Source of the DNA: Octopus vulgaris
Taxonomy: Eukaryota
DNA length: 64,000 nt
Direction: 5' to 3'
NCBI GenBank assembly: GCA_951406725.2
Contig: OX597837.1
Location: 14,942,001 to 15,006,000 of the forward strand
Shown here one piece after another: positions 10,716-53,949 of this stretch. The number at the start of each line of letters is the position of its first letter. Position 1 is the first letter of the stretch. The notes under the pieces were generated by a model. The model made no database searches. It was given only the letters and a program-made list of their open reading frames with translations, and was not told the DNA's origin. Made by a program: the position numbers and the translations under genes.

Positions 10716-11084
10716 AAAAATGATAAATTACTGTTTGTCTCTTTATGCAAATTGTTTAATTTAATTATATACATGTTTATCTGATGTTGACACCGAAGTC
10801 GTTATCTTCATAGTTCGTTAAAGGTCAAGTAATTTATTTAAGCTGATGAGGGAATGTTGTCAGTAAACAAACGATGAAATATCAACAGTTTCAACTTTGG
10901 CCATTAAATATCAAATTATACAGGCAGGCTGTATATGATATGATAGGGAGAGACTGTTTACACAGGGCCACCATGCAGCTGGGATCCCTATTAAATGGGG
11001 AAATATTGATGTTTTGTGACTCACTACATACCCTATTCACTGAAGGCTTAGTAGAGGTGTGGGAAGCAATGAAGCCAGGAAGGT

Positions 11085-11610
11085 AAAGGGGTACGTCTAC
11101 TTGGGGTACACAGTGAACCTGCACTGAAGCATACACGACTGTTGAACTCTCAAAGAGAATACAAGCAGGATGGAAGGCCTTTATCTCAATAGGGAACAGG
11201 CTCAAAGCAAAGCTGGATAAGACCCATATGTGCTTGGCTCCTCTACATGTGATTCCTTGGGCTATAGAGGGAAGAACATCGGATTGGTGACCATGCAAAA
11301 AGCCATGGACAGATCTATGCTGGGAATATTGTTGTGAGAAGATAGCTAAATGAAATAATTTGAGAATGAAGCAGGGTGAGTGAAGTGATCGCAGAATACC
11401 AAAAGGGCTAAAATCCAGTGGATTGGACATGTTGCAATGTTCACGGATGACAGGTGGATCCTTGCAGTTGGCAAGTAGCATCCAGCAGATGAGAAAAGGC
11501 CACTCAAAATCCTCCATGGTGATGGGAGGATAATTAAATGATTTAGGCCAAAATGGTTAAGAATGGTGCGGCCAAGAAAGAATTGGAAGTGCATTGTGAC
11601 CAGTGATGTA
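11085..11610 (+). mobile_element. Decayed RTE-clade LINE (RT thumb and C-terminus)
   Basis: Across frameshifts on +: YVYLG, KRIQAGWKAF, QKAMDRSMLGI, WIGHVA..TDDRW, then KR..P..WED-like. Confidence 0.75.
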
Positions 11611-12789
11611 TAACATCTAATTGTCTGATCGAAACAGTGATATACATTCTGTATAGCTTTGGTTTTCTGGAACCTTTGGTGCCAAAACCATTTTAGACAA
11701 CTGATTTTTTTTTCAAGCTATTGAAGCTATTGAAGTTAATTAAATAATTAAATGAAACCCAGGTATGTGTGCATTAGTATAAATGGTACAAGCTTATTGG
11801 TATTGTACAAGATGCTGTGGGAAATGGTTTCCCAGTAAACTAGTGAAGGGGTCACTGGAATTTGGTGTTCTTATTTGTAAATGAGTGCAGACTACAAGTG
11901 CCGAGAAAGTTACTGTTGTACTTCTAGTAATATTGTGAGTTAAAAAACATCGATTTACTAAGCTTATCCATGCAGTTAGTAGACAAAGTTACCCTCTAAC
12001 AGTATTCAGAATCTAACATCCAACATGTCAGGAAGATAAATCTAGTGAGGTCAGCTAATTGAATTTGGAGGAAGATAATTAGACAAAACCAGTATATAAG
12101 GAATATAACCATAGTGTAATTTCAGCTAATTGAATTTTTAAAAAATAAAGATGGAGATGAGAGTAAGTCTTTAATGTCAACTGGTAAAATTAATACATAT
12201 TTCAGTCTTATCAGACCTCTTCAGGGAGGCATGTTACTTTTGTTGTTTAACCCCAGGTTGGTTTTGATTTTTCAGTCCCATGATCAAAGACCATAATATT
12301 TCTTTTTTTTTTTTAGGCATAGTGTACCTTGGACAACATTATCTAGTGTGTTTTATTCTTTCAAGATTGTCATGTGCTGGTATTTTGCTATTATTTCTAT
12401 CAGGCCCCTTAACCATAAAGGGGTTTCATCATTGAATCACACAAATAAGTTTTGATTCTCAGTTAGAACCTTGTCATTTCACAGAAACTGCTGCTACATA
12501 GAGAAGCGGATGAGCTGCAGGTTTTAGCATTTTACCATTCTTACCTAAAATTTAGAACCATGCTCCTAACAGCTGCTACAGTTTAGTGAAGCAGCATGAT
12601 GGTAGAACTAATTGAATACCTGGCTACATGGCTTGCAATATTTGCAGAAACAGTGAAGCATCTACCAATATTGTTTTACCATATTTAGTTCCAATTATTT
12701 GCATATGTCATAAGAATTCAAAAACTTTGAGACATGTGACATAAATCACTTTTAACAGAGAAACTCAAAATAGATAAAGCTATAAATAA

Positions 12790-14450: not shown

Positions 14451-15535
14451 GTGTCTTTGGCATATCAATATTCAACTCATTTGTCTCCGTTGTGGACAGG
14501 ACAGAGATGTTGAGTGCAAATAAGTTGAGGGAACAACTGGTGTTTGTCCCCTGCCACCACACAGCAATCATTCTTGGTTTGTTTACATCCCCCTAACTTA
14601 GCAATTTGGTCAAAGAAACCAGTAGAATAAGTACCCAACTTAAAAATGTGTACTGGGGTCAATTTGTCAATTTGTTCAACTAAACACTTCAAGGTGGTGC
14701 CCCAGCATGGCCTCAGTCCAATGACTGAAACAAATATAAAAGATAAAAGATATATTGTACCACCACTTTGTCCAGCATGCCATTTTTGTTAAAGACAGTA
14801 GGATGTAATTTGAGAGAGAGAGAGAGTGATTTGGCTGCTATTTCTAGCAGGTCTAGTGACTGCATAGAAACTGCCTTCAGAGAATCTGGAAGATGCTGCA
14901 GCAGAATTGCAATAAACGATTCTGAACATCTTTTATCATAAAAATGAAAAACAGTAAATTTCTGATGATGCTAATGCGGAATAACAATTGACCCCATTCG
15001 TTAATTTTGCTCCAAGCAAACACTTTTAATTGCTAACGATAAACAGTTTTAATGTTCCATTATATTCCATATGATTTTATATACGCACTGTAGACACACT
15101 CACAGACATTTATTCTTTAAGACAGCTTGTTTGGAAAGCTTCACCTTGCAAGAATACCCCATAAAAACCCACCCCAAAAAATGTCTGAGTTGAAATGGGT
15201 TTCTCTAACCATTTCCAGCTGTTACATTATTGTTGTTGTTGTTGTTCACACCACAACCAACCAGATATAAACCCTTTGTGTGACTGTGATACACAGGGGC
15301 GTATAGAGGCGTGGTTGTGTGGTTAAGGAGCTCACTTAGCAACTAGTTAGTTTCAGGTTCAGTCCCACTGTGCAGCATCTTGGGGAAAATGTCTTATGGG
15401 TCTCCAACTCTAGCCCCAGATTGACCAATCCCTTGTCTATGAATGTGGATGACAGTATGATAAAAATGGTTTCGAAATACATATACATGCACGCGCATAT
15501 ATATATACATATATATATACATAACTATCTATCTA

Positions 15536-15578
<43 letters not shown>

Positions 15579-15602
15579 AATTCTTTGGTGTAGCAATGGC
15601 AC

Positions 15603-15695
15603 GCGGCTGAAGAAGGCTTTTGATCTATCTGTTATATCGATTATGCATTGATGTAAGAATAAGTTGTTCTATAAAGCCCGAAACATATGTACCGC
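15603..15695 (+). ncRNA. Type I hammerhead ribozyme motif
   Basis: Stem I gcgg/ccgc, core CTGAAGA 15607-15613, stem II ggcttt/aaagcc with long loop, GAAA 15680-15683, palindromic stem III acatatgt, predicted cut after GUA at 15691. Confidence 0.65.
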
Positions 15696-15784
15696 AACAT
15701 CCTTTGCGTCTTGACCTCGTGTGTACCATTGGCGATTTTTTTTTTTCCTCTGTCTTCCCTTCTCTGGATCTTTCCTTCTCCTAT

Positions 15785-15819
15785 GTTTCCGACGAAGAGC
15801 TCCGCTCGAAACTTTAAAC
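15785..15819 (+). ncRNA. Minimal hammerhead motif, mutated
   Basis: Stem I gttt/aaac, ccGACGA(a), stem II gagc-tcc-gctc, GAAAc. U4 and stem III deviate from consensus. Confidence 0.55.
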
Positions 15820-15919
15820 CCTCCTTCTTTCCTTCTTTCCTGAGTGTCCAATAATACTATATTTGTTCCACGTCCTCGCGTTGTTGTGTTTTCTCTTTGT
15901 GCTTTCTTGTTTGGATTAA

Positions 15920-15958
<39 letters not shown>

Positions 15959-17819
15959 TAGATATAAAATTAAAGCGTATAAAAAGAGTGACAAGATTCA
16001 TATGTTAACTCAATGATTTTGGTCAAGCTTTACTCATCATTTTTCTCTTGGGCTTTGTTGTATCTTTCCTTGATCTCCCACATTTTCTGTTTATACCCAA
16101 GATAGATCTGTTTGAGAGCAGATCTGATGATCAAAGACAATCCAGCCAATCTCAGTGACACATCTCAGGAAAGTGTCTTCAACTGTAGAGCTGAACCAAC
16201 CAATGCCTTGTGAATGAATTTGATGGATAGAAACTGGGTGGAAACCAATGTGTGTGTGTTTGTCCCCATCCCTATATTGTGACAACTGGTGTTGGTTTGT
16301 TTATATCCCCATAAGTTAGTGTTTTGGCAATAAAGACTCACAGAAAAAGTATCAGACTTAAAAATAAGTACTGGGGACAATTGGCTCACCTAAACCTTTC
16401 AGGGCAGTGCCCCAGCATGGCCACAGTCAAATGACCGAAACAAGTAAAAGATAGAAAAAACAGATGCAAAAACATGAGACTGCAACAATTTCCATAATTA
16501 TCAAGTTAAGAACTTGGACGTTCATCATTTTCCAAAACTGAATATTATTGAAGCTACATCAGCCGCTTTGGCACTTCCATTACTCCCTGGGCCATTCTAT
16601 AACTGAACTGGCACCTTTACAACTCAAACGAACCAGTAAATGGATCTGAGCTCAGCCTCCTCCAAGAGAACATTGATGCTACCTTAGCCATTTTAGCTTC
16701 CTCTATGCCCTCTTCTATGTACCTGCTTTAAGTAAACTGGCACCTTTACAAATCACGTGATTCGGTTTTTGATAAAGAATCTGATCTGAAACCCTCGAGA
16801 GAATACGACGGAGTGCGTGGGGGTTGTGAGAGGGAGAGAGGAAGAGGAGAGAAGGTAAATGTTGTTACCTTTCTCTGTTTGGTAACTCAGAAGGCAGCTG
16901 TTTAACATTAAATATTTGAAAAATCAAATAAAGAAAGAAACGAGAAATAAATGTAATTTCCTTCCACCTTTTCAGACCTTTTCTTTAATCTTCTCCCCTC
17001 ATTCACTTCACAACTTCAGTATCAGGTTAGAAATTTCAATACACAAAGATATACATACATACATGCATATATATATATATATATATAGTTGAGGAAAGCT
17101 TATATTTTGGAATTTTGGGAGCAAATAATAATTAAAAGAATATTAAGGGCTTAACAAGAATTTATCCCCTTCATGCAAAGGGGATGGAATGAAGATGGTA
17201 GTGTTTTGTGTGTATGTATGTATGTATGTATGTATGTATATGTGTATATATATACAGATAGATATAGATATATATCTATCATTTATGTACATGTACGTAT
17301 AAATGTATATGTGTATATTTCTATGTATGTATATATGCATGAATATACATATATGGGTGTGTAAATAAATATGCATGTGCATATATATATGTGTGTGTGT
17401 GTGTGTATTTTGTACACATATAGGAGTTGCCGTTTGAAAATTTATGTAATAATGTTTAGAAATTTAGAAAATTCTTGAGTGGAAACAAAGAATTTGCAGT
17501 CTTGAAAATGTACAGGGTTCTTTTTGGGGGCCGTGTTACATTTCACACTGCTTCTGAGACAGATTCCTTCAAAGATAATACCAGATGTTACCAAACTGGG
17601 ATTGCATTACCTATTTGTAAATTACCAGTTTTGAATGAACAAACAAAACTGACAATGGGAGCCTACAACCTTCACACCGTTCAGCGCCAACACATCAAAT
17701 TTGCAACAGATCCTTGTAAATAGGGGAGCCCTGGTAAATAGACTTATGTAATGTAGCAGTTTGTCCCCTGCAAATATTTTACTGTTTACAAAATTATTGA
17801 AGTATGATATCTACAATAC

Positions 17820-18515
17820 GTACATATATGAGCATGTCTAGACATGCAATTATATGCATGAGAATACGTACGTAAAACAAAACATACAAATCTATACAAA
17901 ACATACATATGTCCCAGTGGAAACCTCAATAAAATGTAAGCCCAACAGACCTGATATAAGGATTTGGGAAAGAGAAGAGAAACTGTGTACAGTTGTGGAA
18001 ATTAGCTGCCCAGTGGATGTTAACATAAAGCTGAAGATTAGTGAAAGAGAGAGCACCTATGCTGAACTATTGAGAAATCTGCAGTTACTCTATCCAGATT
18101 ACAAGTACAGGTTTTTACCTGTAATTATTGGGGCCCTGGGATATATAATGCACTGCCTAGATACCAATCTTGAGAAATTAGGTTTCTCAAAACCAGAAAG
18201 GAAAAAGCTGATTTGAAGACTACAGATCCAATCTGTCACTGGAACTGTTAAAATCTGTAAAACTTCTCAGAAGTTTATCATTTCAATATATACATGAGCA
18301 TGTCTAGATATGTAACTGTATGCATGGGAATACAAGCATAAAGAAAAACATACAAATCTGCACATATACATACAAACAAACAAAAATACCCTGTTGTCGA
18401 TGTTGAAATTCCAATGAAGGAGCCTTGGATCTAGGTTAGAAACCGGATCCTTCTCAATTGGCAAGAAATCTTGAAATAAACTGAATAATGACATACATTC
18501 ATACATACATATATA
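17820..18515 (+). mobile_element. 5'-truncated non-LTR retrotransposon with restriction-like endonuclease (R2/R4/NeSL group)
   Basis: ORF remnant NRPDIRIWEREEKLCTVVEISCPVD...KISERESTYAELL...PVIIGALG is a PD-(D/E)xK RLE domain. Premature TGA at 18214. The 3' UTR ends aataaactgaataatga(cata)n, and a 3' UTR fragment is duplicated upstream at 17820-17910. Confidence 0.8.
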
Positions 18516-20390: not shown

Positions 20391-20937
20391 TTGGACTTCC
20401 TGTTTTCAGTTGGACATAATTAAATTGTCCAATCAGCTGAATTACCTACTTATTGGATAATATTAGTGTAAGTGGGTGACTATTTCACAAGCACTTCTTG
20501 TGTCCTTAACGTAATCCTCAGACAGAACCAGTTTACAAGGCTGGCCTCTTGAATTACAGTTTTTCACTGGATTGTCTCCGTTTCCCCCCAAATGCCTCCT
20601 TGGGTTTGGCCCAGACTACAATAGAGGAAATTTGTTCGAAACACCTCATGACCTCAAAACAAACTGCTTGACCATTGCACCATTCTTGTGTCCAAGCAGA
20701 TGTATTTACACCAATAGTACACAAAGCGGTGGGCCATGTCTCATATTGGGGTCCGCACAATTGTTTTTTGGGGGTTTTTTTAGGTTCAGGTGTAGGTGTT
20801 TGGTTTATATTAATAAACCTTTAATGTTTCCTTGTGCCAGGATTGGAACCCAATATCAGAAGTACTACAGTGTTTATTCTCAATTGAATTAGCAGCCGGG
20901 CGTGCCTCCTCCTGTTTATAAAGGGAAGTGTGTGTTT

Positions 20938-21892
20938 ATAGTCACAGTTCTAGGACAGCATTCTACACCATATGAGATGTCATCGGGTGTACCACAGGGA
21001 TCTGTCCTTGGTCCCCTCTTGTTTGTGGCATACATTAATGACATAGATGCCAATTTAAAGAATGCCACAGTATTGAAAGATGCAGACGACATCAAGCTGT
21101 ACCTTGAAATCAAGAGGACAGATCCTGATGTCCACAACTCTTTCCTGCAATCAGACCTAGACACAATGCAGCAATGGATCACAGACTGGCAACTGAAACT
21201 GGCTGTGGACAAGTGTACCACCATGCATTTTGGGAGAAAAAACCCTGCATCCACATACTCCCTCCACAACACTGATATCAAGAAATCCTCTTGCGAGCGT
21301 GACCTAGGCATCACTGTCAGCAGTGATTTGCGTTGGACAAAGCATATCTCTAAAATTGTCAAGAAGGCCGAGGGTGTCTTGGCATCACTCAGCAAGACTT
21401 TTGTTAGCCGCTCTCCAGCCATCTATTTAAAACTGTATACAGCTATGGTACGACCACACTTGGAATTCGCATCATCAGTTTGGAACCCCTATCTTGCTCA
21501 GAACATTGACCTCCTGGAATCTGTCCAGAGACGTGCAACCAAACGCATACCCTCCATCAGACACCTACCATATTCTGAGCGCCTTGTTTCCCTGGGCATG
21601 GATTCACTGAAGCTCCGGCGTCTGGCGACGGACTTGGTAAACACCCACAAAGTTATCAACCACCTCACCAACAACAACACTGAACACCTTTTTGATCTCC
21701 ATGTGTCCAACACACGTGGACATGCCTACAAAGTCAGAAAACAACACAGCTCCCATGACTTTCGGAAACATTTTTTCACGCTCAGAGTTGCTGAAGCAGT
21801 GGAATAAACTGCCTGCGTCAGTTGTTGACTGCCATGACACTGCATCCTTTAAGGCCCTCATGCTTTCCGAAATCCGCCGAAACTACACCTGA
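20938..21892 (+). pseudogene. Reverse transcriptase C-terminal part of a CR1/L2-group LINE, disabled
   Basis: SGVPQGSVLGPLLF, DADD in place of YADD (21079-21090), RDLG, LYTAMVRPHLEFASSVWNP, LESVQRRATK, TRGH, and WNKLP after a +1 frameshift at about 21799. Confidence 0.92.
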
Positions 21893-32599: not shown

Positions 32600-32673
32600 T
32601 GGCCGGATAACTGAAGAGATGGCGACGTGGATTTCCACTTCAGCATCCGAAACTCGGAGTTTTATCATGGCTA
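32600..32673 (+). ncRNA. Type I hammerhead ribozyme motif in a pLTR-like fragment
   Basis: Stem I tggccg-gataa/ttatc-a-tggcta, CTGAAGA 32611-32617, long stem II, GAAA 32649-32652, stem III act-cgg-agt. Followed by aataaa and (TA)n. Confidence 0.65.
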
Positions 32674-37914: not shown

Positions 37915-38297
37915 GAGAGATAGTCAGACAGACAGACAGATAGGTAGACAGATAGACAGATAGGTAGACAGACAGATAGGTAGACAGACAGATAGGTAGA
38001 CAGACAGATAGTCAGACAGACAGATAGGTAGACAGACAGATAGGTAGACAGACAGATAGGTAGACAGACAGATAGGTAGACAGACAGATAGTCAGACAGA
38101 CAGATAGGTAGACAGACAGATAGGTAGACAGACAGATAGTCAGACAGACAGATAGTCAGACAGACAGATAGATAGGTAGACAGACAGATAGGTAGACAGA
38201 TAGATAGGTAGACAGACAGATAGGTAGACAGATAGATAGGTAGACAGACAGATAGGTAGATAGATAGGCAGATAGGTAGGTAGACAAACAGACAGAT
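37915..38297. repeat. (GACA)/(GATA)/(GGTA) compound tetranucleotide array
   Basis: Higher-order unit gataggtagacagaca repeated. Confidence 0.95.
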
Positions 38298-38750
38298 TAT
38301 GTATATAACTGCAAGTGTATGTGATGATGTATGCTTGTTTTCCATACTTGCATGAGTCAGGCGGCATATATTGATTTTCTTGTGCTGAACGGGGCCTTCC
38401 TGTCGCCAAACCCTTACCTGTTTCCCAGCAAGGTAATCTTTCTCCATGGCCAAACATGTTTTTTGCAGAATATTAGTGACGGACATTTATTTTCGACAAT
38501 CACTAAAAATATTGTATATGCACAGAGATTGTTTGTCAGAATTTCCTGTCTCTGGTTGGTTGTGTATAAAATCTTTGCAGAAATAAAAACAGTTAAAAAC
38601 TAATTTGTATTTTGATCTGGCATATAACAACTGGCTACACTCCAGTATTATTGATAGCAATCAAGGGAAAAGGTCGGGAGACATGTTGAATAAAAAGAAA
38701 TATATTTATATTATACTGTAGTTTGGACACATTATAAAGTGTTCTGGCTT

Positions 38751-39282
38751 AACCACGGGTTACCTTGGGTTAAGCAGACCTATAACCATGGGTTACCTTG
38801 GATTAAGCAGACCTATAACCACGGATTACCTTGGGTTAAGCAAACCTATAACCACGGGTTACCTTGAATTAAGCAAACCTATAACCACAGGTTACCTTGG
38901 ATTAAGCAGACCTATGACCACAGGTCACCTTGGATTAAGCAGACCTATAACCACAGGTCACCTTGGATTAAGCAGACCTATAACCACAGGTCACCTATTA
39001 AGCAACCTATAACCACAGGTCACCTTGGATTAAGCAGACCTATAACCACAGGTCACCTTGGATTAAGCAGACCTATAACCACTGGTTACCATGGATTAAG
39101 CAGACCTATAACCATGGGTCACCTTGGATTAAGCAGACCTATGACCACAGGTTACCTTGGATTAAGCAGACCTATGACCACAGGTTACCTTGGATTAAGC
39201 AGACCTATAACCACAGGTTACCTTGGATTAAGCAGACCTATGACCACAGGTTACCTTGAATTAAGCAGACCTATAACCACAG
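38751..39282. repeat. 33-bp minisatellite, about 16 units
   Basis: Unit aaccacaggttaccttggattaagcagacctat, with few variants and no spacers. Confidence 0.95.
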
Positions 39283-41709
39283 GCTTTTCAGTCTTGTCTC
39301 TTTCATATTTTTCTGTATCTGTGATTATATTATTCAGTTTGTCCTTTAAGATGGTACAGTATGATTTGAAGAAGGTTTGAGCTGCTATTTCTAGCTAATA
39401 AGTAGAATGACCATTTAGAGGTTCCTTCATTTTTGCTCATTCTATTTCGTGTTTGATTATGCAGTATCAGAGTTCCAGGTTTCTGTTAGTTGAGCCGTTT
39501 CAATATGGAGTTGCTAGAATTGCATTTTTGGTGCCACCTCCTGAAATGTGACTGAAATTATTATATCTTGTATACAATTTGTGCATTTAATAAACCAAGT
39601 TGACTGTGTGCTTGTTATGGTAACTAAGTTCGGGGTTTGTAAAATGTTGAAATGTCAGCGAACTCCTCTTTAGTTTCTTTGCATAACAAGTACCATTAAG
39701 GACATTTAGAAAAAAAAAAAAACCCATATTGTATTCTTGTGTGATTAGAGTGTGTGTGTGTCTGTCTGTGTGTGCATATTGAGAAGGTGAGGTACAGATT
39801 TGGGGCATTATTTACCAACTGGTTTTCAAGTCTAATTTCGTTGCTGCTGTGACATTTAATGAAGCGTGTGTGTGTGTCGATGGTCATTTTGCATAAATAA
39901 AGAGTTTTTTTTTATGAAAAAGCTTTAGCATCACTTCAGTGTACAATGGTCTTCTCTTCCACAATCTCTCTTTCTTTCCTTCTCTCTCTAAGTTACCTGT
40001 GGTCAGACCTGGACACAGATGAGCCCCACCAGGTTTACAATGCCCAAAACAGTGCCCCTACAGCCCTGCCCAAAACAGTGCCCCTACGGCCCCATCAGAA
40101 GCTAAGGACCTTACACTTACTGTATTTAATAAACATTTTCTTTTCTATTGTTATTTTCCTTATCTTGAACTGACCCCTATCAGTTACGCTCTCCACTTAT
40201 CTGAATCCTTCGTTGATATACCTTCACTCTCCAAAACACTCTTGACTTCCTTCTCACCTGTAAACACATCACTGACCCTGCTCCACCCCAAACATCATCA
40301 GATTATATATTCACTGCTTCATCAACAACAAAAACACTGCTCCCTATCATCCTATCACACAACAACCAAACCCTCTCCTACTTCAAATTTGCAAACTAAT
40401 CAGAGGGGGGAAGGTGACTGGCAGTATCTTCTTCCTATGTATGCCCTTCCATATTCTTTACACAAACCCCCTGATCATCCACAGGTTCACTGCTCCATAC
40501 CATCCTTCCACACAACAGCTACTTCCTCCAAACCCTTCAAATTCTTCAAGTCCCCTGACTGGTGAGAGGGTCCACTCATGTTCTTCCCACACGTGCCTTT
40601 CCACATTCTTTACATAAACCCCAAATTATCTACACATGACAACCACTTCCCCTAAACCCTTCAAATAATTCAAGACCCCTGACTAGCGAGAGGGGTGATT
40701 CATGATGTCTTCTTCCTCTGTATGTGCAAAAATTATTCAATTATTTCACACACGCACACGGCTCCAGCACAGCTATAGGGGTGAGGGACACTCTACCCCC
40801 AACATCTGGAGGAAGCAACTGACCTAGTGCAACGCTTGCAAGATAAACACCAAAAGTGCAGAAGCTGCTTTCCTGCATCTGCCACCTGTTGCTGCTCTCT
40901 CGCATCCTCCCAAATAACAACAACAACCACCTGGCCCTCTCTCATCATTGCCAAAGCATCAGACCAGCCCACACTCACTTTTCAAGATCTTCCTCTTTAA
41001 CCCAGATAGTTCTGTAAGTAGGACTCCTGCTGACAGTCACAGCATTTGCTGCGACTATTCCCTTTTTTTTGTTTTCGTTTTTTCCTTTTATTTTAAGAAT
41101 TGTGTATTTAGAACTACAGTATCAAATGTGCCCTTCTTTTTCAAGACAGTGGAGAGTGATATGGGTTACTTTTTGGATAAAGTATAATATCATACATATA
41201 TATATAAATAGCGGCAGTGGCGTCTTATATATGTCATCAGTACTACGCACACACATGCACACATACATACAATTACATTCACACTCACATAATCACATTC
41301 ATACACACAGGGACACTATCTCACACACATACACACACTAGGAAACCCCTTCCAAACTCCCCTTTCTCGACTCCATTTGTCTAATCACCCCTACTTACAA
41401 AGCTATGGCCTCTGCTAAACAGATTGAAGCAACATGAAACAATGTACCTTGCTCAAGAAGACAACATGCCACCCAGTGCAGAAATTGAACCCACAACCTT
41501 ATGATCATGATCCCAACACATTAACCATTAAGCTATACACTTTTACAACCACAACAATTGAAATATTAAGTCTTTATTAATGCTGTTTTTTTCAATCTTC
41601 TATTGCAGTGTTTGTGTGTGTGTGTGTGTGTGTGTGTGCCTGCTTGTTGTTCCTGGTTTTATCTTTTGTTTTCTGTACATTTGAACCATTATACACACAC
41701 ACACACACA

Positions 41710-52615: not shown

Positions 52616-53029
52616 GTGGTGAGCTGGCAGAAACGTTAGCACACCGGGCGAAATGCTTAGCGGTATTTCAGCTGCCGTTACATTCTGAGTTCAAATTCCA
52701 CCGACATTGACTTTGTCTTTCATCCTTTCGGGGTCAATAAATTAAGTACCAGTTACACACTGGGGTCGATATAATCGACTTAAACCGTTTGTCTGTCCTT
52801 GTTTGACCTCTCTGTGTTTAGCCCCTTGTGGGTAGTAAAGAAATAGGTATTTCGTCTGCCGCTATGTTTTGAGTTCAAATTCCACTGAGGTTGACTTTGC
52901 CTTTCATCCTTTTGGGGTCGATTAAATAAGTACCAGTTACACACTGGGGTCGATATAATCGACTTAATCCATTTGTCTGTCCTTGTTTGTCCCCTCTGTG
53001 TTTAGCCCCTTGTGGGTAGTAAAGAAATA
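52616..53029 (+). mobile_element. SINE family A dimer (head plus two 184-bp units) with TSD
   Basis: Units start at 52662 and 52846. TSD ggtttgagagaag (52603-52615) and ggttttagagaag (53030-53042). Inserted in a family C copy. Confidence 0.85.
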
Positions 53030-53949
53030 GGTTTTAGAGAAGCTAGTGAGCTTGAGGTCTGCCCCAAGCACTGCTGTTGGTATGGTCCCTATGGCTGAAT
53101 GCCCTTCCTTACGCCCACCACTTTATAGAATGTGCTGGGTTCTTTTGATACATAGCACCAACACCAGCAAGCATGGGTTGGGCGGTTTGACATGGTGGTG
53201 GTTAGCAGGGAGCTGTCCAGACCCCAACTGTCTATTGTGGTATGGTTTCTACAGCTGGACGCCCTTCCTAATGCCAACCACTTTACAGAGTGTGCTGGAT
53301 GCTATTTACATACCACTGGCACAGGTGCATTAACGTAGAACCAGCACAGGTGTGTTAACACAGCACGTGAAAGGACAAGCCTGTATGTGTGGAAAACAGT
53401 GATTTCAATTAGCTTGATGCCTTTTTATCAGGTACAGCAAATCACAACATCTCTTGGTCCAGAATGTGTTTTACGCACATCGAATGGCTATGGAAGTCCA
53501 GTAGAGTAAAATGGGAATCCAAGGGGGTCCATAGGTTAAAAAAAAGTGGGGTTGAGAATCGCTACTGCAGAGGGAGTTACTTGTACAATTTGAAGGACTT
53601 TTGTCAGTTTTAAACAAATTATGCCCTCTCCATGCGATGCTTATATATCTTTCTCAGAGCAGAAATATTTTTCTTCAGAATCATTTGGAGACTAAAGGGG
53701 TTTAAATATAGGGAAAACTGCTTGTGAGGGTTCGATTCGGTCTGCTAGCATGTGTCCAAGCGTGTAAAATTGTATTGTTGAGCCTCAGGGCGGCACTAAA
53801 TCAGGAGATCCTTCGTCGAAGGTTTTCAAGTCGCAGCCACATCCTATATACACCTAAGTGTACCAAGGATAACATTAGCCAATGTACTCTTCCGCTTTTA
53901 AGAGAGAAGAGTGCATTTGAATGAAATAGAACTATTGTTTCTAGCAGGT

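Follow-up and report, generated by a model that had tools for sequence, protein, structure and literature searches.

The 64-kb window, which is the whole stretch of Octopus vulgaris DNA that was analysed, is repeat-rich, AT-rich DNA of animal type. Within it a stretch of 347 bp (15576..15922, 40.6% GC) lies between (TA)n tracts and carries two type I hammerhead motifs, HH1 and HH2, on the same strand (Table 1). The sequence-only reading had taken this stretch for a single cassette with two hammerheads. The (TA)n setting and both motifs stand; the single cassette does not, as coverage breaks at 15708-15713 and the two halves, here called families A and B, occur apart elsewhere. A blastn search with a word size of 7 found no second copy of the 347 bp in the 64-kb window.

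Table 1. Features of the locus, in coordinates of the window
Feature	Position	Strand	Evidence
Left microsatellite, target tract	15497..15575; pure (TA)n 15538-15575		TRF
Family A, 5'-truncated 3' end of a hammerhead-bearing repeat, without its last ~25 nt	15576..15713	+	depth, loose ends at 15582 and 15706-15713
HH1, type I hammerhead	15603..15695	+	descriptors, folding, family variants
A-B junction	15711..15713	+	loose ends behind 15710 and 15713 and before 15712; depth trough 15708-11
Family B, nearly full-length copy, few 5' bases missing	15712..15922	+	contig coverage, depth
HH2, minimal type I hammerhead	15785..15819	+	descriptors, folding, family depth
Right microsatellite, likely family B priming site	15923..15966; pure (TA)n 15923-15956		TRF; family B ends TTAAC + (TA)n

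Other repeats are common in the window. Dispersed, SINE-like short repeat segments flank the locus at 16330-16452 and 15296-15450, with 7 and 8 other matches in the window, respectively. Tandem arrays are present at 38750-39283 (a 33-bp unit, 16.3 copies) and at 37930-38264 (a 16-bp unit, 20.4 copies), and positions 52662-53032 hold a 184-bp head-to-tail dimer of a dispersed repeat. A 304-codon open frame at 20893-21807 (+) matches a reverse transcriptase domain (PF00078, RVT_1; E 9e-14) and is a LINE remnant, which we take to be CR1-like. Two further open frames, 17842-18216 (+) and 10891-11717 (-), look by eye like retroelement remnants and gave no Pfam match at E 0.01.

HH1 has every element of a type I hammerhead (a CUGANGA core, GAAA, a NUH site, and stems I and II). 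Its core is intact (CUGAAGA at 15607-15613 and GAAA at 15680-15683), its stem I is GCGG/CCGC (4 bp, 15603-06/15692-95), and cleavage at its GUA site is predicted after 15691. Helix III, ACAUAUGU (15683-90), is a perfect 8-nt palindrome, and the computed energy of its homoduplex is -7.0 kcal/mol. An extra A15614 follows A9 and precedes the pair G15615-C15678, and a spare C15679 stands ahead of GAAA. Stem II has a foot of 6 bp (15615-20/15673-78) followed by a long extension with an apical 9-bp hairpin around 15633-15655. The core, the GUA site, the stem I pairing and the palindromic stem III are thus all present as the sequence-only reading had described them; what it called an unusually long stem II loop is mostly helix, made up of the basal stem and the apical hairpin. 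Relative to the free ensemble, the hammerhead fold of HH1 costs 3.9 kcal/mol locally and 8.25 kcal/mol in the whole 347 bp.

HH2 is smaller. Stem I is GUUU/AAAC (4 bp, 15785-88/15816-19) and stem II is GAGC/GCUC (4 bp); an extra A15796 is followed by G15797-C15807 (G10.1-C11.1), GAAA lies at 15808-11, and cleavage is predicted after 15815. The two predicted cuts had been placed 124 nt apart, and these positions hold. The core reads CCGACGA, that is, U4C (window position 15790), and helix III of the locus copy is ACUU, so that this copy has neither the U4 nor the helix III pair of a canonical core. The sequence-only reading had described HH2 as a minimal, mutated hammerhead; the changes in this copy are U4C and the loss of an ACGU palindrome. 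Its hammerhead fold costs 1.8-2.6 kcal/mol relative to the free ensemble.

The two changes differ in their distribution within family B. Position 15813 is G in 88-98% of family B depth, which gives the ACGU palindrome and a GUU site; the helix III change is therefore private to the locus copy. U occupies position 4 in just 26-32% of depth in three runs, and U4C, at about 70%, is thus the majority form of the family. Comparison of this 26-32% with the 2-12% found at three CpG control sites suggests that the U4 form is a real subfamily. CpG decay as the sole source of U4 was considered and is disfavoured by the same comparison, although a non-CpG site reaches 11-35%. U4C has been described as greatly lowering activity in vitro while still permitting viroid infectivity (in the portion of PMC3088659 available).

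Both motifs have the extra base between A9 and 10.1, the G-C foot of helix II and the short helix I of the minimal hammerheads in pseudo-LTRs (pLTRs) of Penelope-like elements (PLEs). The palindromic helix III of the PLE type is present in HH1; for HH2 it is found in the family majority only and is absent from the locus copy. The computed energy for pairing helix III of HH1 with that of HH2 is +1.2 kcal/mol, that is, the strands do not pair, and HH1 and HH2 are therefore unable to dimerise with each other in the way believed necessary for minimal PLE hammerheads. HH1 is predicted to cut only as a homodimer or with the help of a protein, and the locus copy of HH2 is probably inactive. For these reasons no 124-nt RNA is expected as a designed product, and the small released RNA proposed by the sequence-only reading is unlikely.

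Descriptors for strict HH1-like and for HH2-like hammerheads, written after the motifs had been seen, each match exactly once in the window and in none of 60 dinucleotide-shuffled 64-kb windows, so both motifs exceed chance. A relaxed canonical descriptor matches twice in the window and once in a single one of the 60 shuffles. Folding energies are unremarkable (z = 1.06 for the whole stretch, 0.23 for HH1 and -0.24 for HH2). The sequence-only reading had looked to hammerhead models for confirmation, and none came from Rfam: there is no match at the gathering score across the 64 kb, and the 16 weak matches up to E = 10 include no hammerhead.

A third type I hammerhead, picked up by the relaxed descriptor, lies elsewhere in the window, at 32605-32667 (+). 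It has the core CUGAAGA at 32611, a long imperfect stem II, GAAA at 32649 and a predicted cut after 32661, and it is followed by an AT-rich tail and then by (TA)/(CA) repeats. It is single in the window. Its helix III, ACUC-G-GAGU, is as in Hydra-clade elements among those listed in the accessible part of PMC8557442, and it is probably another PLE 3' end.

Part of the region 15300-16300 is present in 20 of the 24 public runs listed, under four organism labels. Contigs matching 15570-15930 (361 bp) number 20,071 in run X1, 12,014 in X2 and 4,785 in X8, so the sequence is highly repeated. The two halves are not equally abundant. Summed depth in X1 is 46,000-208,000 over 15583-15712 and 0.8-5.9 million over 15713-15907. 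The ratio of B to A depth is 6-22-fold at the junction, and at the cores it is 62 in X1 and 130 in X2, both DNA-labelled runs. In X8, whose RNA status is a guess, the ratio of HH2 to HH1 depth is 2,050, a figure that cannot rank expression because it is contig depth; no RNA-labelled run is among the listed runs that hold the stretch. Neither this ratio nor the family B joints seen in X8 were taken as evidence of expression, as similar joints occur in DNA runs. With eight long contigs as a single-copy proxy for summed depth, family A has about 700-2,800 copies, and family B about 15,000-40,000 at its 5' part and 75,000-200,000 at HH2, all order-of-magnitude figures at best. Only 2 of the 12,895,792 reads of the raw-read run X22, which bears the same species label as X1, match 15570-15930. 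Such near-absence does not fit a high-copy family; a record filter or another organism under the label may be guessed at.

Alignments to family A start at about 15582, and some copies run upstream into other, conserved sequence (nine X2 contigs, agreement 0.95). At the other end, contigs that leave the locus sequence at 15706-15713 enter a T-rich tail of ~25 nt and then TA-rich sequence in all four runs examined at this point, and the left part of the stretch is therefore the 3' end of a family of its own. The locus copy has 1-4 private changes in this part. Across stem I, core and helix III (15603-13 and 15680-95, 27 positions) the variant list has no entry of at least 8%, which is not proof that these positions are identical in all copies; for stem II (15614-79, 66 positions) it has 10 such entries. 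Some of the stem II variants keep pairing (G15615-C15678 to G-U or A-U, and A15614 to G opposite C15679), as unphased changes. Variant tables depend on the length of the stretch compared: the shorter stretch 15664-15760 gave no variants, including at four sites that are listed with 15570-15930.

Family B is a very high-copy, non-coding, pyrimidine-rich repeat of ~210 bp. Its 5' end is defined and is followed 24 nt later by 11 consecutive T (15736-15746); its 3' end, according to loose ends, is TTAAC followed by (TA)n. Two clear private substitutions, at 15813 and 15845, mark the locus copy. The final AC (15921-22) was considered as a remnant of a family A tail on the basis of one X1 loose-end consensus of six contigs and was not counted. 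Head-to-tail joints of family B are rare: 15919 to 15712 in X1 (depth 54.9) and X2 (depth 21.4), and 15897 to 15713 and 15898 to 15719 in X8. They represent either tandem copies or nested insertions. Given a unit of retrozyme size and these rare joints, a circle of ~210 nt formed from rare master dimers is conceivable. Loose ends of both families show insertion in (TA)n or AT-rich DNA with a fixed 3' end, the mark of EN+ PLEs such as Hydra, Neptune and Poseidon.

Pattern scans with a 19-mer of HH2 found no viral contig, and scans with a 21-mer of HH1 found neither viral nor genome contigs. Seventeen metagenome loci that match the HH2 19-mer were dismissed as chance, all 17 being GC-rich with matches of only 19-23 letters. 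The literature covered holds no description of families A or B, or of retrozymes from octopus or other cephalopods; they are possibly catalogued in Repbase, Dfam, the library of PMC13282606 or bioRxiv supplements, which lie outside that coverage.

The dinucleotide TG at 15712-13 is common to families A and B and forms a microhomology of 2 nt; T15711 differs from the C of family A. The junction was examined by comparing 15664-15760 with four runs (X1-X4) under four organism labels. The 32 longest of the 3,070 matching contigs align over 49-50 letters on one side only, either on 15664-15713 or on 15711/12-15760, and none of the 32 crosses the junction (records were filtered, and about 80% of X1 was read). 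A bridging contig with 31 letters on each side would be at least 62 letters long and should appear among the longest. The 24 contigs listed for 15570-15930 likewise include none that crosses. The junction of the locus's own copy is also absent from the listed contigs, which weakens the absence of bridging contigs as proof.

Depth and flanks agree with a break at this point. In each of the four runs, depth at 15708-11 is no more than 9-15% of the left plateau and 0.7-1.4% of the right. The 15-31 contigs per run that enter at 15712 differ from one another in their AT-rich flanks (agreement 0.47-0.52), and eight listed contigs of 299-823 nt start or stop exactly there. One X2 contig carries family B behind a 29-letter end that matches the dispersed repeat at 16420-16448, 25 of 29 letters by eye; this repeat has seven other matches in the window. 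The A-B join is likely unique to the locus. The sequence-only reading had envisaged the cassette as a multi-copy family and had named a single-copy cassette as grounds for giving it up; the joined form is probably single-copy, as no listed contig crosses the junction.

Hammerheads of the kind found here have been described in several settings, each cited from the portion of the source that was accessible. Minimal type I hammerheads in PLE pLTRs have a short helix I, an extra base after A9 and a palindromic helix III; they are mostly single dispersed motifs from truncated elements, and dimers are thought to be needed (Cervera and De la Pena 2014, PMC4209133). The locus resembles them in its 4-bp helix I, extra base after A9, G-C foot of helix II and palindromic helix III. 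It differs in that helix II of HH1 is extended to about 66 nt, family B is mostly U4C, two dissimilar hammerheads stand in accidental tandem, and no PLE ORF is tied to A or B.

Nearly all Hydra-clade PLEs, of which one is listed from Octopus bimaculoides, target (TA)n, and a hammerhead sits at their 3' end; a preference for (TA)n or microsatellites is described for Hydra, Naiad and Neptune (Craig et al. 2021, PMC8557442). Shared with the Hydra clade are the (TA)n insertion, a hammerhead near the 3' end, a CUGAAGA-type core, a spare base before GAAA, and a 4-bp palindromic helix III ending in GU and the cut base. The hammerhead of Hydra-1_Obim differs by eye from HH1 and HH2 in its other stems and in a 9-nt helix III with a central unpaired base, and the parts of the supplement to PMC8557442 that were searched with 12 short terms gave no relevant match to family A or B, the few matches being unrelated. 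The microsatellite targeting claimed by the sequence-only reading is supported by the (TA)n flanks of both families, and for hammerhead-bearing PLEs it was already in print (PMC8557442).

Metazoan non-LTR retrozymes are small non-coding repeats of 150-450 bp with a type I hammerhead, proposed to derive from PLEs; by the published test, a retrozyme must consist of hammerhead-bearing monomers of one kind repeated in tandem (Cervera and de la Pena 2020, PMC7229834; Li, Clavereau, Pollet 2026, bioRxiv 10.64898/2026.07.22.740005). Cleavage was reported for only one of nine retrozyme dimers tested (bioRxiv 10.64898/2026.07.22.740005). Like retrozymes as described in these two sources, the stretch is small, GC-poor (40.6%) and non-coding with a type I hammerhead, and the family B unit of ~210 nt with rare head-to-tail joints falls in the same size range. 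Unlike them, the locus is not a tandem of one monomer, since its two hammerheads come from unrelated families and the joined stretch does not recur in the window; family B occurs mostly as single copies with a minimal rather than a canonical hammerhead.

Taken together, these features indicate that the stretch is probably two independent hammerhead families joined, a copy of family B having been inserted by a PLE reverse transcriptase at the AT-rich tail of a family A copy in (TA)n, with the loss of ~25 nt of A. Family A is likely a PLE 3' pseudo-LTR and family B likely a non-autonomous passenger. A PLE is the likely carrier of both to judge from PLE biology; the loose ends, 30 letters long, link no RT or GIY-YIG ORF to either. 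Copies of A and of B are found separately in large numbers, ending in (TA)n or AT-rich sequence. As PLE biology suggests, each would have entered (TA)n through target-primed reverse transcription that began at a fixed 3' position, and the template would have been uncut RNA, because both locus copies span the predicted cut sites. Priming of family B may have taken place in the (TA)n on the right, with its 5' end then joined to A through the 2-nt TG, at the cost of about 25 nt of the A tail together with any TA spacer. The outcome would be identical if the two had been inserted side by side and the DNA between them had later been deleted.

The model for these steps is the Poseidon element PAc of Anolis (Frangieh et al. 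2024, PMC11167929). According to the sections of that source at hand, the anole element cleaves AT-rich DNA and begins reverse transcription at fixed positions within its RNA; the template RNA is uncut, and insertion proceeds even when the ribozyme is dead. From PAc are taken the AT-rich targets, the fixed internal start and a protein-assisted hammerhead that is dispensable for insertion, all of which are assumed here. PAc differs in being autonomous, with an ORF that overlaps its hammerhead; A and B are known here as repeat ends without such an ORF. The spread of family B, about 70% of whose depth is U4C, fits insertion with dead ribozymes. For 5'-truncated L1 insertions, deletions at the target that were repaired through microhomology have been discussed (PMC2912911, in the part accessible).

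The same arrangement could have arisen in one insertion, if a PLE reverse transcriptase reached the 5' end of B RNA, switched by way of TG to an A RNA at a point ~25 nt short of the 3' end of the latter, and came to a halt after a further 130 nt or so. A single cDNA would have the order and polarity seen, with B 3' and A 5' on the same strand, and would fit an almost complete B next to an A that lacks its 5' part. In addition, the two match over 2 nt at the junction, and the few private changes (1-4 in A, 2 in B) may point to a like age of the parts. Against such a template switch, the 5' end of B also occurs on the 3' ends of other repeats (on B itself and on the dispersed repeat), the pattern expected from landing at AT-rich tails and one that favours insertion of B at the A tail; the join also adjoins the natural (TA)n end of A, where a second insertion is expected, and the literature matches listed include none on PLE template switching. 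A single junction cannot separate a DNA-level join from a template switch, and a target-site duplication is unreadable inside (TA)n. The switch is judged possible, on the unlikely side. That the 347 bp are instead an amplified double-hammerhead element releasing a linear or circular RNA of 124 nt is very unlikely. Two same-strand folds between (TA)n tracts, with cuts predicted at that spacing, speak for it, and some depth remains in the trough (9-15% of the left plateau), so that filtered records could hide bridging copies. The trough depth is, however, explained by family A contigs that reach 15710-15713, and none of the 32 longest contigs of the four runs bridges the junction. Further, the helix III strands of HH1 and HH2 do not pair, the HH2 copy combines U4C with a broken palindrome, and the 124-mer folds no better than shuffles (z -0.22), while retrozyme circles are described as highly self-paired (PMC7229834, in the part available).

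An assembly artefact, in which an A locus and a B locus were joined across similar (TA)n-rich sequence, would account for the junction being in none of the listed contigs of the four runs, including the locus's own copy. The join lies, however, inside non-repetitive letters with a 2-nt match and not inside a TA tract, and the runs come from other individuals or species (best share of words 0.61), so that a private or polymorphic allele explains the absence; an artefact is therefore highly improbable. Least probable of the readings considered is mobilisation of the families by a (TA)n-targeting LINE. No PLE ORF is linked to them and LINE remnants occur in the window (RVT_1 at 20893-21807), but the described hallmark of PLEs is a minimal type I hammerhead whose helix III is palindromic and which lies close to a 3' end in (TA)n, and both families lack a poly(A) end.

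Insertion of B at the tail of A thus remains the preferred reading, and the locus probably brings together, by accident and at a single site, two hammerhead motifs of known kind that belong to separate, abundant families. The sequence-only reading was right to see ribozyme-bearing mobile repeats here, in that both halves are of the PLE-pLTR or retrozyme kind, with many copies, conserved cores and (TA)n flanks; the mobile element is not the 347-bp unit. A bolder proposal, decidedly doubtful, would make family B a monomeric PLE parasite of SINE scale (roughly 10^4-10^5 copies) that spread after U4C arose and whose fold now serves as a recognition structure and no longer for cutting; the locus would then record a switch of the PLE enzyme between two ribozyme RNAs, a route to a new two-ribozyme retrozyme that releases a small RNA.

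As found, a (TA)n tract with two fused hammerhead-tipped ends of PLE type is of small importance. It does show that hammerheads lying close together in genomes of this kind can be neighbours by accident, which calls for care in reading them as one unit. Family B, with U4C in about 70% of its depth, bears on the question of whether an element with a PLE-type hammerhead can spread only if that ribozyme cuts.
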